DNA from: Mycolicibacterium bacteremicum
Lineage (GTDB): Bacteria > Actinomycetota > Actinomycetes > Mycobacteriales > Mycobacteriaceae
Reading direction: 5' to 3'
Assembly (NCBI RefSeq): GCF_943913955.1
Contig: NZ_CALUAE010000021.1
Location: forward strand, 8,787 to 72,786
Length of the DNA stretch: 64,000 nt
A program made the translations under genes and the position numbers. Of the stretch, positions 41,993 through 50,160 are shown piece by piece. Positions within the stretch are counted from its first letter, which is position 1; each line of letters starts with the position of its first letter. The notes below the pieces were generated by a model that was given only the letters and a program-made list of their open reading frames with translations, made no database searches and was not told where the DNA came from.

Positions 41993-43571
41993 GATGAGCG
42001 ATGACGTCTTGACCCCGTCGGGTATCCCGCTGGCCCCGGTCTACGGGCCGGCCGACCGCGCGCAGGACCCGCCCGCGCCCGGTGAGTATCCGTTCACGCG
42101 CGGTAATTTCGCGTCCGGCTACCGCGGTAAGACCTGGACCTTCCGTCAGTATTCGGGTTTCGGCACCGCCGAGGAGTCCAATGCGCGGTATCGCTACCTG
42201 CTCGATCAGGGCGGCACCGGTCTGTCGGTGGCCCTGGACCTGCCCACCCAGTGCGGTTATGACTCCGATGACCCCGAGTACGGGGAGGAGGTCGGCCGCG
42301 TCGGCGTCGCCGTCGACACCCTGGCCGACGCCGAGATCCTGTTCGACAGCATCCCGCTGGACAAGATCAGCACCAGCTTCACCATCAACGGCACCGCGGC
42401 GATCCTGCTGGCCTTCTACGTGGCCGCCGCGGAGAAGAAGGGGGTGCCACGTGAGAAGCTCACCGGCACCATCCAGAACGACATCCTCAAGGAGTACGCC
42501 TCGCGAGGTACCTGGATCTGGCCGCCGGAGCCGTCGTTGCGGCTGATCGCCGACACCATCGAGTTCTGCGCGGCCGAGGTACCCCGGTTCAATGCGATCT
42601 CGGTGGCCGGTGCGCACTTCCGTGATGCCGGCGCCAATGCCGTGCAGGAGATGGCGTTCACTCTCGCCGACGGCGTGACCTACTGCGACACCGTCGTGCA
42701 GCGCGGTCGGATGACGATCGACAAGTTCGCGCCGCAGATCTCGTTCTTCTTCTACACCCACGGCGACTTCTTCGAGGAGATCGCCAAGTACCGGGCCGGG
42801 CGGCGGCGGTGGGCCACCATCGTGCGGGAGCGCTACGGCGCCACCACCGACAAGGCCGCGATGTTCCGGTTCGGCTGTGTGTCGGGTGGGGCCTCGCTGT
42901 ACGCGCCGCAGGCCCAGAACAACCTGGTGCGGGTGGCGTACGAGGCACTGGCCTCGGTGCTCGGCGGTGTGCAGTCGATGTTCACCGCGGCCTGGGACGA
43001 GCCGTTCGCGCTGCCGTCCGAGGAGTCGGCGACCCTGGCGCTGCGCACCCAGCAGATCCTGGCCTACGAGACGGGCGTCACCAAGGTGGCCGACCCGCTG
43101 GGCGGTTCCTACTTCGTCGAAGCACTCACCGACGCCACCGAGGAGAAGATCATCGAGATCATGCGCGATCTCGAGGACCACGGTGGGATGGTGCGCTGTA
43201 TCGAGGACGGGTATCTGCAGGGCCTGATTGCCGACGAGGCGTTCAAGATCCACAACGAGGTGGAATCCGGACAGCGGCCGGTGGTCGGGGTGAACAAGTT
43301 CGTCGTCGACGAGCCGGCCCCGGATCTGGCCACCTACGAACTCGACGCCGAGGGTCGTGACAAACAACTCGCGCGACTGGCGAAGGTCAAGGCCGAGCGT
43401 GACGACGTCGCGGTGAAGGAGGCGCTGGCCGCGCTGTCCCGAGCAGCCGAGGGAGACGACAACCTGATGCACAAACTGATCGACTGTGCCAACGCCTACT
43501 GCACGGTGGGCGAGATGGTCTCGGCGCTCAAGGCAGTGTGGGGCGAGTTCGTGCAGCCGGTGGTCTTCTGA
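41993..43571 (+). CDS. B12-dependent acyl-CoA mutase, large (catalytic) subunit, IcmA/HcmA-like
   Basis: 526 aa from MSDDVLTPSG. Methylmalonyl-CoA-mutase family TIM-barrel domain without a fused B12 domain (FTRGNFASGYRGKTWTFRQYSGFG, RVGVAVDTLAD). Confidence 0.8.
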
Positions 43572-43978
43572 TGGCGACCCGAGTGCTGGTCGCCAAGCCC
43601 GGTCTGGACGGACACGACCGCGGCGCCAAGATCGTCGCCCGCACGTTGCGCGATGCCGGTTTCGAGGTCATCTACACCGGTATCCGGCAGCGCATCGAGG
43701 ACATCGTGTCGATCGCCCTGCAGGAAGACGTTGCCCTGGTGGGCCTTTCGATCCTGTCCGGGGCGCACGTGGCGATGACCAAGCGCACCGTCGATGCGTT
43801 GAATGCTGCCGATGCCGGTGACATCGCCGTCGTGGTGGGCGGCACCATCCCGGAATCCGACGTGCAGAAGCTGCTCGATGCCGGTGCGGCCGCGGTGTTC
43901 CCGACCGGTACCGCGCTGGACACCCTGGTGACCGAGGTGCGGGCGTTGACGGAGAAGGCAGGGGAACACGCATCATGA
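43571..43978 (+). CDS. acyl-CoA mutase small subunit, cobalamin-binding domain
   Basis: 135 aa with the DxHxxG motif (LDGHDRGAK). Its ATG overlaps the large-subunit stop (TGATG). Confidence 0.8.
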   Translation: MATRVLVAKPGLDGHDRGAKIVARTLRDAGFEVIYTGIRQRIEDIVSIALQEDVALVGLSILSGAHVAMTKRTVDALNAADAGDIAVVVGGTIPESDVQKLLDAGAAAVFPTGTALDTLVTEVRALTEKAGEHAS

Positions 43979-44931
43979 GACTGGGCGTGATGATCGGGGC
44001 CGAGCGCGGTGACATGTCGCGCAAGGTCACCAAGCTCGTCTCCGATATCGAGTGGGCCGACTCGGCGGGTCTGGCCACCGCGTGGATGCCGCAGGTGCCA
44101 GACGATTTCGACCTGCTGACCATGGTGGCGCTGATGGCCTCGCACAGCACCCGCATCGAACTGGGCACCGCGGTGGTGCCGCTGCAGGCGCAGCACCCCA
44201 TCGCCCTTGCCCGGCAGGCGCTTTCGGTACACGCGGTGTCCGGTGGCCGGCTGGCCCTGGGCGTCGGACCGTCGCACCACTGGATCATCCGGGACATGCT
44301 GGGGCTGCCGTATGACAAGCCGGCCGGCTACACCCGCGACTATCTGCAGGTGCTCAACGCGGCGATCGCCGGGCCGGGCCCGGTCGACGTGGAGAACGAC
44401 CACTTCACCGTGCACAACCCGACCGCCCTGGCCGCCGAGACGCCGATGCCGGTGTTGGTGGCCGCGCTCGGCCCGGTGATGCTGCAGATTGCCGGGGAGC
44501 ACGCCGACGGCACCTCGCTGTGGATGGCCGACGAGAAGGCCATCGGCGAGCACATCGCACCCAAGATCAACAAGGCCGCCGCCGAGGCGGGCAAGCCCGC
44601 ACCCCGTATCGTCGCCGGCATCCCGGTGACGCTGTGTGCGAACTCCGAGATCGAGTCGGCCAAGGAACGCGCCAACCGCATCCTGGCCGAGGCCGAGACC
44701 TCACCGAACTATCAGCGACTGCTCGACCGCGGTGACGCCCGCACGGTCGGTGATCTCTGCGCGGCCGGCGATGAGGAGTCGATCCTCAAGCGATTCAAGG
44801 CCTTTGCCGATGCCGGCGTCACCGACCTGTCGGTGCGCCTGCTGCCGATCGGGGACAACCGCGACGAGTTGATCGCGTCGAAGTACCGGACCCGCGAGGT
44901 GATCGCCGAGCTCGCCAAGGCGGTGTCGTGA
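43975..44931 (+). CDS. LLM-class (luciferase-like) F420/flavin-dependent oxidoreductase
   Basis: 318-aa TIM-barrel LLM pattern. Shares a 4-nt overlap with the mutase small subunit. Confidence 0.65.
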   Translation: MRLGVMIGAERGDMSRKVTKLVSDIEWADSAGLATAWMPQVPDDFDLLTMVALMASHSTRIELGTAVVPLQAQHPIALARQALSVHAVSGGRLALGVGPSHHWIIRDMLGLPYDKPAGYTRDYLQVLNAAIAGPGPVDVENDHFTVHNPTALAAETPMPVLVAALGPVMLQIAGEHADGTSLWMADEKAIGEHIAPKINKAAAEAGKPAPRIVAGIPVTLCANSEIESAKERANRILAEAETSPNYQRLLDRGDARTVGDLCAAGDEESILKRFKAFADAGVTDLSVRLLPIGDNRDELIASKYRTREVIAELAKAVS

Positions 44932-49211: not shown

Positions 49212-49228
49212 GGAGAATAGCATTCTCA
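49212..49228. promoter_or_regulatory. palindrome GGAGAAT-AGC-ATTCTCA in the SDR/MeaB divergent promoter
   Basis: Same GAGAAT-N3-ATTCTC core as 46282-46304. Confidence 0.6.
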
Positions 49229-49281
49229 ACTACATCGAAGGGGCGGTGAAGGTGAACCACAGCGCCCTAGAGTCGCACGCA

Positions 49282-50160
49282 ATGACGATCACCGAACTTT
49301 TGGCGGCGGCCCGTGGCGGCTCGCTGCGCGCCGTCGGCAAGCTGCTCAGCCTGGTCGAAAGTGACCGCCGCGCCGAGGTGTTGGCCGAGTTGCCCGCCGG
49401 TCGGGTTCGCACCATCGGCATCACCGGCCCGCCCGGGGCCGGGAAATCCACCACGGTCGCGGTGCTGGTCGCGGCGTACCGCACGAGCGGATTGCGGGTT
49501 GCGGTGCTGGCCGTCGACCCGTCCTCGCCATACAGCGGGGGAGCTTTGCTCGGGGACCGGATCCGGATGGCCGCGCACATCAACGATCCGGATGTCCTGA
49601 TCCGATCGGTGGCCACCCGCGGGCATCTCGGCGGGCTGGCGGCGGCGGTGCCCGCGTCGATCACCCTGTTGGGGGCGCTGGGCTACGACCTGGTGGTGCT
49701 GGAGACCGTCGGTGTCGGGCAGTCCGAGATCGAGATCGCCGCGGTGGCGGATCCGACCGTGGTGATCCTGAACCCCGGTGCCGGCGACGCGATCCAGGCC
49801 GCCAAGGCGGGCCTGCTGGAGATCGCCGACATCATCGTCGTCAACAAGGCCGACCGCGACGGTGCCGAACAGACCGCCCGTGAGCTGCACATCGAGACCG
49901 GCCTGCCGATCCTCAAGATCAGCGCGACCCAGAACACCGGCATCGGTGAACTCGCGGCCGCCGTGGACGCCCACCACCGCGCCGATACCGCCGAGCGTCG
50001 TGGGGCCCGGGCCCGGCTGCAGATTCTGTCGCTGGCGCAGACCGCGCTGCGGACCCATCCCGGGCTCGACGAGCTGGCGGCCGCCGTGGCCGACGAGCAG
50101 CTCGACGTCTATGCCGCGACGGCCCGATTACTCGACGGTGCGCAGGTCAAACCCGAATGA
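49282..50160 (+). CDS. MeaB/ArgK-like G-protein chaperone for B12-dependent mutase
   Basis: P-loop GITGPPGAGKST, with VVNKAD (NKxD) and switch regions. The start is uncertain (ATG 49282 or GTG 49247); the track TTG at 49189 would read through the operator palindrome. Confidence 0.8.
   Translation: MTITELLAAARGGSLRAVGKLLSLVESDRRAEVLAELPAGRVRTIGITGPPGAGKSTTVAVLVAAYRTSGLRVAVLAVDPSSPYSGGALLGDRIRMAAHINDPDVLIRSVATRGHLGGLAAAVPASITLLGALGYDLVVLETVGVGQSEIEIAAVADPTVVILNPGAGDAIQAAKAGLLEIADIIVVNKADRDGAEQTARELHIETGLPILKISATQNTGIGELAAAVDAHHRADTAERRGARARLQILSLAQTALRTHPGLDELAAAVADEQLDVYAATARLLDGAQVKPE

Follow-up and report, generated by a model that had tools for sequence, protein, structure and literature searches.

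To our knowledge, the specificities described for acyl-CoA mutases that depend on coenzyme B12 amount to a handful, comprising methylmalonyl-CoA mutase (MCM), isobutyryl-CoA mutase (ICM/IcmF), ethylmalonyl-CoA mutase (ECM), 2-hydroxyisobutyryl-CoA mutase (HCM/RCM) and pivalyl-CoA mutase (PCM), while those of IaaGH and of the alkylsuccinyl-CoA mutases are mostly inferred. Each of the earlier specificities opened a pathway, and with it came a biocatalytic tool that rearranges carbon skeletons stereospecifically. In the anaerobic auxin degradation of Aromatoleum aromaticum, the phenylsuccinyl-/benzylmalonyl-CoA mutase IaaGH acts together with IaaL, a family III transferase (PMC8360864), and for the actinomycete mutases MatB/MatQ, which is split, and ActD a conversion of hexylmalonyl-CoA to 2-pentylsuccinyl-CoA has been proposed (PMC5719088). 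A survey of mycobacterial B12-dependent enzymes in nontuberculous mycobacteria names only MutB, MetH and NrdZ (PMC8192938). Here we describe a two-subunit acyl-CoA mutase, and the conserved gene cluster around it, in a stretch of 64,000 nucleotides of Mycolicibacterium bacteremicum (contig NZ_CALUAE010000021.1, positions 8,787 to 72,786 of the forward strand), hereafter the window. Because its active site matches that of no characterised mutase, the enzyme probably rearranges a substrate that has not yet been assigned to acyl-CoA mutases.

Coding frames in the window, which is high in GC (~68%), were chosen by third-position GC, keeping one frame per gene and using Pfam and NCBIfam matches as support; both lines of evidence back every gene listed in an initial annotation of this DNA. 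That annotation had described the mutase as split into a catalytic and a B12-binding subunit, which agrees with the PF01642 and PF02310 matches lying on separate genes. Its 135-aa B12 subunit with a DGHDRG motif stands as drawn, whereas its catalytic subunit is a real gene that starts at ATG 41994 rather than 41993, and encodes 525 aa rather than 526:

41994..43571, plus strand: mutL, the large (catalytic) acyl-CoA mutase subunit, 525 aa, matching PF01642 over its full length (E = 7.5e-197)
43571..43978, plus strand: mutS, the B12-binding small subunit, 135 aa, matching PF02310 (E = 5.7e-26) and carrying the motif DGHDRG (DxHxxG)

The B12-ligating His of the small subunit, which the initial annotation had singled out for checking, is retained. 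The large subunit reaches 661 bits against TIGR00641 (cutoff 304) and the small subunit 142.6 bits against TIGR00640 (cutoff 57), and databases label the large-subunit family as 'methylmalonyl-CoA mutase family protein'. Against the IcmF equivalog the large subunit scores 287 bits, where 1500 is the cutoff, and against the MCM equivalog NF006944 it scores 575 bits, below the cutoff of 876; since the latter model describes the fused enzyme, this shortfall is weak evidence against MCM. NCBIfam holds no equivalog for the family itself. From these matches, the locus is predicted to encode a heteromeric adenosylcobalamin-dependent acyl-CoA mutase of 525 aa plus 135 aa, with a MeaB-type GTPase in the same cluster. 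Four successive genes, namely mutL, mutS and those for a luciferase-like oxidoreductase (LLM) and a family III CoA-transferase, have overlapping stop and start codons (TGATG, ATGA and GTGA, in this order), by which they are judged to be translationally coupled.

The large subunit was aligned, residue by residue and without ambiguity, with HcmA (4r3u), human MUT (2xij), Mycobacterium tuberculosis MutB (6oxc) and Propionibacterium shermanii MutB (1req). Active-site positions are given in the literature numbering of the P. shermanii MCM, which is taken as checked because the same offset yields Ile90 and Asp117 of Hcm. The positions compare as follows:

MCM Tyr89 (Ile90 in Hcm, Phe80 in Icm), a classic specificity position: Tyr53 in the window large subunit
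MCM Arg207 (Gln in Hcm and Icm; Gln208 in Hcm), a classic specificity position: Arg171
Position of Hcm Asp117, an Hcm marker: Ala80
MCM His244 and Gln197 (thioester carbonyl) and Glu370 (adenosyl ribose): kept as H208, Q161 and E336
MCM Tyr243, cavity: Ala207
MCM His328, cavity: Gly
MCM Gln330, cavity: Val296
MCM Trp334, cavity: Ala
MCM His364, cavity: Phe330
MCM Asn366, cavity: Ala332
MCM Phe117, cavity: Leu
MCM Arg123, cavity: Cys
MCM Asn208, cavity: Gly
MCM Tyr210 and Tyr212, cavity: Trp and Trp

In all, the large subunit is altered relative to MCM at positions 117, 122, 123, 208, 210, 212, 243, 245, 246, 328, 330, 334, 364 and 366-368. The mapped residues, kept and altered alike, do not vary among the window large subunit and the 11 orthologs compared with it, which come from 7 further genera (8 when the window is included). 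On this alignment, the residues Tyr89 and Arg207 that in MCM anchor a free carboxylate are kept, and the rest of the cavity is predicted to be less polar and locally roomier.

The initial annotation had called the cluster 'Hcm/Icm-type', implying a mutase that, like HCM, ICM or PCM, acts on an uncharged short branched acyl-CoA. The subunits are indeed split as in IcmAB and HcmAB, a ligase and a MeaB gene lie nearby as in hcl-hcmAB-meaH, and the best PDB match of the large subunit is HcmA (4r3u; 510 bits, 48% identity), although human MUT follows close behind with a nearly equal score of 477 bits. Because the specificity positions hold Tyr and Arg, as in MCM, the large subunit is nevertheless not of the Hcm/Icm type. 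The Ile90, Asp117 and Gln208 of Hcm are replaced by Tyr53, Ala80 and Arg171, the Phe/Gln pair of Icm (Phe or Leu with Gln, taking the isobutyryl- and pivalyl-CoA mutases together) reads Tyr/Arg, and these residues do not vary across the family; representatives that are ICM-like (Phe/Gln) or HCM-like (Ile/Asp/Gln) fall into other clades. We consider a mutase of this kind highly improbable here.

At the positions that the initial annotation had proposed to inspect, then, the residues match those of MCM (Tyr, Arg), a result that the annotation itself had named as grounds for refuting it, yet at six further ones they do not. One could imagine a second, split MCM, working from succinyl-CoA to methylmalonyl-CoA and serving propionyl-CoA from the neighbouring beta-oxidation genes, in the manner of archaeal-type split MCMs or of the Escherichia coli Sbm operon. 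Such an enzyme would have Tyr89, Arg207, His244, Gln197 and Glu370, all of which are present, and the family name given by the annotators also speaks for it. However, because the cavity is rebuilt, the large subunit is not an ordinary MCM: Tyr243, His328, Gln330, Trp334, His364 and Asn366 are all swapped, and invariantly so. How rare this is became apparent from a HMMER scan of 1.84 billion representative proteins, from which the nearest 150 clusters at 50% identity were taken, 113 of them full length; the large subunit's own family, which is collapsed at this level of identity, has no separate count among these 113. Positions 243, 330, 364 and 366 read Y, Q, H and N (YQHN) in all 26 MCM-type (Tyr/Arg) clusters, in 6 ICM-type (Phe/Gln) clusters and in HcmA. 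The AVFA combination of the window occurs in a single full-length representative (1/113), namely P0121, a 69%-identical sister from metagenome-assembled genomes of Actinomycetota, and in a few partial sequences among the 150, while an equivalent of Glu370 is found in 111 of the 113. In favour of a split MCM, there are split mutases with the full YQHN, for example one encoded beside a nonribosomal peptide synthetase gene on a Streptomyces canus plasmid, 52% identical to the window large subunit. The Tyr243Ala variant of the P. shermanii MCM is reportedly strongly impaired, which counts against a plain MCM. Furthermore, mycobacteria have a canonical fused MutB of ~750 aa, such as MSMEG_3159 of M. 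smegmatis (PMC8192938), ~44% identical to the window subunit, and propionate metabolism does not require a mutase to be so closely coupled to ligases, an LLM and a family III transferase. A second MCM is therefore a quite doubtful explanation.

We favour instead a mutase of new specificity that acts on bulky substituted succinyl- or malonyl-CoA inside a beta-oxidation-like catabolic pathway, and put the probability of this at roughly 55%. Because the carboxylate anchor is kept and the pocket is less polar and locally larger, an ECM-like 1,2-shift on bulky malonyl/succinyl-CoA is suggested. Most likely, this would be a shift of the CoA-thioester group of the ECM/IaaGH type, which would interconvert a succinyl-CoA that carries a bulky apolar group and the malonyl-CoA substituted in the corresponding way. 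While the chemistry would thus be familiar, the specificity class is probably new. The mutase family is a strong candidate for a further acyl-CoA mutase specificity, and the initial annotation was right to leave the substrate open.

The large subunit is 99% identical to its counterpart in Mycolicibacterium neoaurum ATCC 25795, and orthologs 85-93% identical are found in Mycobacterium, Nocardia, Rhodococcus, Gordonia, Streptomyces, Actinomadura and Parafrankia. Beyond these orthologs and the 69% sister, the next relatives lie at ~51% identity. In a neighbour-joining tree, the family stands among unannotated mutases in which Tyr89 and Arg207 are kept and positions 243, 330 and 366 vary, and apart from the clades of HcmA, ICM-like enzymes and canonical MCM. 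By these comparisons it is a sharply bounded, uncharacterised actinobacterial subfamily, and one that is judged to be under very strong purifying selection. Such high conservation is typical of the enzyme class, since the canonical mycobacterial MutB is likewise very well conserved, at 94-96% identity among slow growers (a search with the ~750-aa M. tuberculosis MutB, which returned only slow-grower orthologs).

Among the 150 representatives there are also dozens of other clusters at 50% identity, consisting of split or fused mutases, in which Tyr89 and Arg207 are kept and the residues at 243, 330, 364 and 366 are non-canonical, all annotated solely as 'methylmalonyl-CoA mutase family'. Together they represent a wide range of acyl-CoA mutase active sites that is still unexplored. 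Two related subfamilies, likewise uncharacterised, have comparable surroundings: the P0129-type mutase of Thermodesulfobacteriota (locus L087) adjoins a CoA_transf_3 gene and an AcetylCoA_hydro-type transferase, and the P0132-type mutase, on a JGI metagenome contig, adjoins a MeaB-crotonase fusion and an AcetylCoA_hyd-type CoA-transferase, within an aromatic ring-cleavage cluster with Rieske, BphC and MCP-hydrolase genes.

The genes around the mutase in the window are given below, with synteny counted over 80 related loci and short-chain dehydrogenases/reductases abbreviated as SDR:

43975..44931, plus strand: LLM of TIGR03564, an uncharacterised F420-linked family whose name derives from MSMEG_4879 (345.6 bits, cutoff 234)
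44928..45968, plus strand: family III CoA-transferase, 346 aa, PF02515 (E = 1e-83), catalytic Asp aligned
45956..46249, minus strand: plant-type 2Fe-2S ferredoxin, 97 aa, PF00111 (E = 8.5e-17)
46322..47689, plus strand: acyl-CoA ligase Lig2, 455 aa, PF00501 and PF13193
47679..48413, minus strand: SDR1, PF00106 (E = 1.5e-44), in 60/80 loci
48410..49201, minus strand: SDR2, FabG/HADH-like, PF00106 (E = 1e-33), in 56/80 loci
49279..50160, plus strand: MeaB-type G-protein chaperone, PF03308 (E = 4.2e-71), TIGR00750 (244.3 bits, cutoff 240.75)
40939..41838, minus strand: HSDL2-like SDR (PRK08278 family), first gene of a divergent operon, NF006133 (405 bits, cutoff 250)
39449..40942, minus strand: second acyl-CoA ligase, Lig1, 497 aa, PF00501 and PF13193
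39150..39452, minus strand: conserved 100-aa protein, in 55/80 loci
37102..37680, minus strand: TetR-family regulator, PF00440
50237..52795, plus strand: three-gene add-on of a DUF35 protein (ChsH2-type), an SCPx-type thiolase and a PRK08290-type crotonase, by Pfam and NCBIfam

As the initial annotation had pointed out, the neighbours of the mutase include a ligase and SDRs along with an LLM, a family III CoA-transferase and a ferredoxin, the last three of which lie outside the described hcm and icm clusters. The MeaB-like GTPase it had placed nearby is likewise supported, by PF03308 and by the P-loop GPPGAGKST and the motifs DPSS, ETVGVGQSE and NKAD. The open reading frame (ORF) of this gene spans 49189-50160 and opens at TTG 49189; its start is likely ATG 49279, because the product of 293 aa then resembles the 291-aa Parafrankia ortholog. 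The LLM, syntenic in 68/80 loci, has F420-dependent Mer as its nearest solved structures, at only ~65 bits. Syntenic in 75/80 loci and in all other genera examined, the CoA-transferase is closest to transferases of the oxalate/formyl, glutarate and succinate types, its top NCBIfam matches being succinate-glutarate and succinyl-CoA:mesaconate transferases, all below cutoff. A role as alpha-methylacyl-CoA racemase, supplying the right epimer, is disfavoured by the PDB scores (formyl-CoA transferase 155 bits versus the racemase 67 bits) and by the aligned catalytic Asp. In an alignment with its orthologs, the adenylation motifs of Lig2 are intact (SSGTTGMPKAV, YGASE, GWYRTGD and PRLPSGK). Both ligases occur in 71/80 loci, Lig2 at an identity of at least 60% in 69 of these and Lig1 in 56. 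A plus-strand ORF of 90 aa at 46053-46325 was rejected as a gene, being an antisense shadow of the minus-strand ferredoxin.

To the left, the conserved cluster reaches past the boundary drawn in the initial annotation, taking in the divergent HSDL2-like SDR, Lig1 and the 100-aa protein, which are syntenic in 55-60 of the 80 loci. The HSDL2-like SDR, present in 60/80, scores 253 bits against the HSDL2 structure 3kvo. The 100-aa protein has no match in Pfam or NCBIfam, Pfam remaining blank even at E = 10; its motif GKRY...EILVTKAG recalls small zinc-ribbon-like proteins, without the cysteines. At the right end, the DUF35/SCPx thiolase/crotonase add-on is limited to the M. neoaurum clade (7-9/80 loci). 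The idea of a bbs-like core made up of DUF35, thiolase, ECH and the KstD-like gene was dismissed, these being found in only 2-9/80 loci.

Across genomes, the companions of the mutase are the CoA-transferase, a ligase, the LLM, SDRs, MeaB and either a ferredoxin or a ferredoxin reductase, usually joined by a two-subunit acyl-CoA dehydrogenase (ACAD); in every genus examined, the two-subunit mutase is associated with a family III CoA-transferase and a ligase. In Nocardia, Rhodococcus, Streptomyces, Parafrankia, Gordonia and Actinomadura, the counterpart of the ferredoxin is a FAD_binding_6/NAD_binding_1/Fer2 reductase of 330-360 aa. This reductase usually occupies the ferredoxin's slot, and its C-terminal Fer2 domain is what the ferredoxin matches; most mycobacteria have the ferredoxin alone. 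Between Lig2 and the SDRs, most mycobacteria, Streptomyces, Gordonia and Actinomadura carry the two-subunit ACAD, whose large subunit is most like that of pimeloyl-CoA dehydrogenase (185 bits, well below cutoff), and an EchA15-like crotonase. The latter (17800-18564 in the related locus L007) is a 76%-identical ortholog of PDB 3rrv, a structural-genomics entry without assigned function, and reads GLGCSLA rather than GGGxELA, and DPH rather than PE. Both catalytic glutamates are missing; it is unlikely to be a hydratase, and could possibly be a decarboxylase or isomerase. Parafrankia and Nocardia have kept the dehydrogenase genes, though not this crotonase, and a true thiolase is often nearby in the clusters of other genomes. 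In the M. neoaurum clade, window included, both the ACAD pair and the EchA15-like crotonase are lost, and DUF35, SCPx thiolase and a crotonase follow MeaB (window 47689-50160 versus L007 15907-18564).

In the 69% sister clade, a reductase, CoA_transf_3, ECH, SDR, LLM and ligase are kept in a different order, and because the same genes stay together despite this, their linkage is taken to be functional rather than accidental. In Blastococcus, mutL, mutS, the CoA-transferase, ligase and MeaB lie together, with the LLM a few genes off. What this analysis demonstrates is the class and subunit make-up of the enzyme, its chaperone, the signature of its active site, and its conservation and synteny.

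How might these proteins work together? We infer a bulky carboxylated substrate, the direction of the reaction and the role of each accessory protein. The two ligases, or else the family III CoA-transferase translated together with the mutase, would convert a branched or (di)carboxylic acid into its CoA thioester, after which the mutase would take away the branch or carboxyl arrangement that blocks beta-oxidation. That the transferase is nearer to dicarboxylate-handling members than to racemases supports such a substrate, and the precedents of IaaGH with IaaL and of MatB/MatQ and ActD, as well as the neighbours of the P0129- and P0132-type mutases, agree with it. The product could then be decarboxylated and/or beta-oxidised by the ACAD pair, the non-hydratase crotonase as a possible decarboxylase, the SDRs and a thiolase, enzymes that in the M. 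neoaurum clade would be partly swapped for DUF35, SCPx thiolase and crotonase. The F420-type LLM may provide one redox step, and the ferredoxin or ferredoxin reductase single electrons, either to an oxygenase or for the repair of cob(II)alamin.

We must however take into account several points that weigh against a bulky dicarboxylic substrate of this kind. The signature comparison covered sequences of the MCM, ICM and HCM types, with ECM, IaaG and the alkylsuccinyl-CoA mutases compared by description only, and the lining of the substrate/adenosyl cavity by Tyr243, Gln330 and Asn366 is our assumption from the MCM structures. We know of no obvious source of substituted succinates for aerobic actinobacteria. 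The window genes include no dedicated epimerase and no clear decarboxylase, and because the ACAD pair and the EchA15-like crotonase are lost in the M. neoaurum clade, the pathway in the window may be rewired or partly decayed. Literature searched by M. smegmatis locus tag, gene combination and mutase-family terms holds no characterisation of the family, and no substrate, activity or phenotype either. Lastly, Arg207 and Tyr89 could hold a polar group other than a carboxylate.

This last point leads to a mutase for polar, non-carboxylated, bulky acyl-CoA, for example alicyclic or derived from terpenoids or steroids, in which Arg171 and Tyr53 would bind a hydroxyl, keto or other polar group, with the LLM and SDRs setting its redox state. 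A hydrophobic, reshaped pocket would suit such a substrate, as would the three SDRs (one of them HSDL2-like) and the F420-type LLM that travel with the mutase. In several genera the cluster is flanked by genes for a P450, a Baeyer-Villiger monooxygenase, an aldehyde dehydrogenase, a Rieske oxygenase and an MFS protein, and the M. neoaurum clade adds the DUF35, SCPx thiolase and KstD-like genes typical of steroid-type catabolism. The P450, Baeyer-Villiger monooxygenase, aldehyde dehydrogenase, Rieske and MFS genes, together with Amidohydro_2, nevertheless vary from genus to genus, and the oxygenases among them are not conserved. Moreover, an Arg at 207 pairs with a carboxylate substrate in every characterised mutase and is lost otherwise (MCM versus ICM and HCM), and the co-translated CoA-transferase resembles enzymes that handle dicarboxylates. 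On balance we hold a non-carboxylated substrate to be unlikely, and keep to the bulky succinyl/malonyl-CoA mutase as the preferred reading.

The region between the two divergent operons contains a repeat with one copy close to the mutase start:

41813-41840 and 41953-41980, the proximal copy on the plus strand: 28-nt direct repeat GGTATTGGCATTCTCATTTT... in the divergent intergenic region, copies 140 bp apart

The repeat had no match in 100 shuffles. Its proximal copy consists of TTGGCA, 17 nt and TACGTT, followed by ~8 nt to the mutase ATG, and a 15-nt core of this copy recurs without change in 57 of 86 loci and can be recognised in Nocardia, Rhodococcus and Streptomyces. Because the proximal copy is conserved from Mycobacterium to Streptomyces, its sequence suggests a leaderless-type promoter (-35 TTGGCA, -10 TACGTT) and/or an operator for the co-travelling TetR regulator, whose gene goes with the cluster and is found at either end of it in other mycobacteria. 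A B12 riboswitch upstream of the mutase was also considered, and none is found window-wide at Rfam gathering thresholds. The sole match at these thresholds is a tRNA gene at 23568-23650 on the plus strand.

Elsewhere in the window, 52857-63593 holds a separate gene set of the ring-cleavage type that is not syntenic with the mutase in other genomes. It comprises a flavoprotein resembling KstD and 4-oxocyclohexanecarboxylate dehydrogenase, an IclR regulator, an alpha/beta hydrolase, a FAD_binding_3 monooxygenase, a LigB-type extradiol dioxygenase, a second KstD-like flavoprotein, a 436-aa LLM, an SDR and a cyclase. Three of the ORF calls overlap (56208-57860, 57757-58752 and 58518-60476), and their starts therefore need revision. 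Upstream of the cluster, 38223-39119 (minus strand) and 33040-37094 encode a DUF1295 protein (steroid-reductase-like membrane protein), two acyl-CoA dehydrogenases and a GntR/FCD regulator, which accompany the mutase in its closest relatives only.

The family occurs in many Actinobacteria, both environmental ones and ones of clinical relevance, among them the M. avium complex, Nocardia, Rhodococcus, Gordonia, Streptomyces and relatives of Frankia, and it is tightly tied genetically to the uncharacterised F420-type oxidoreductase family TIGR03564. With its substrate assigned, about a dozen conserved genes labelled 'family protein' would gain functions at the same time, the catabolism of actinobacteria would acquire a further B12 demand, and it could be probed to what extent the active site of MCM tolerates remodelling with the carboxylate anchor retained. 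More tentatively, and with less confidence than the specificity itself, we suggest that it may be the founding member of a new specificity class, an aerobic actinobacterial mutase for succinyl/malonyl-CoA with bulky substituents, in a pathway that depends on coenzyme F420 as well as coenzyme B12 and degrades branched, alicyclic or alkyl-substituted dicarboxylic acids. If so, it would be an aerobic counterpart of the carbon-skeleton rearrangement that has until now been linked to the anaerobic breakdown of hydrocarbons and auxin, and the dicarboxylic acids degraded would form a widespread, unrecognised class.

Compared with the known systems, the window enzyme shares with MCM (1req, 2xij, 6oxc) the fold, the cofactor, Tyr89, Gln197, Arg207, His244 and Glu370, the His-on DxHxxG domain and a MeaB encoded nearby. 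It is ~44-45% identical to MCM and consists of two polypeptides without a MutA-like beta subunit, and besides Tyr243Ala, His328Gly, Gln330Val, Trp334Ala, His364Phe and Asn366Ala it has about ten more changes in the area of the cavity. With HcmAB of Aquincola tertiaricarbonis (4r3u), it has in common the split subunits and a ligase and MeaB-like gene in the neighbourhood. Apart from the exchange of Ile90, Asp117 and Gln208 for Tyr, Ala and Arg, the two differ in that Hcm retains the Tyr243, Gln330, His364 and Asn366 that the window enzyme has lost.

The sbm-ygfD-ygfG-ygfH operon of E. coli encodes a mutase, a MeaB-like GTPase, a crotonase-type methylmalonyl-CoA decarboxylase and a CoA-transferase. 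The same four functional types are present in most versions of the cluster, and the P0132 relative fuses two of them, MeaB and the crotonase. The E. coli CoA-transferase, however, belongs to another family, and the decarboxylase role of the crotonase, which is missing in the window's clade, is a putative one in our cluster.

Ecm/MeaA, MatB/MatQ and ActD resemble the proposed enzyme in taking carboxylated substrates above the size of methylmalonyl-CoA, and MatB/MatQ in being a split mutase of actinomycetes. MatB/MatQ and ActD are biosynthetic, serving secondary metabolism, whereas the context of the window cluster is catabolic. Unlike Ecm, the window mutase has no crotonyl-CoA carboxylase/reductase or epimerase adjoining it; neither of these, nor a methylsuccinyl-CoA dehydrogenase, was found among the window genes or the related loci. 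Finally, whereas IaaGH belongs to an anaerobic pathway, the window cluster is that of an aerobic actinobacterium and lacks the IaaF-type decarboxylating dehydrogenase and the molybdenum or hydantoinase-like genes. With its two-subunit mutase, its coupled family III CoA-transferase and CoA ligase, and its bulky, apolar-substituted succinyl/malonyl-CoA, the IaaGH system nonetheless offers the closest analogy, in gene content, for the mechanism proposed for the window cluster.

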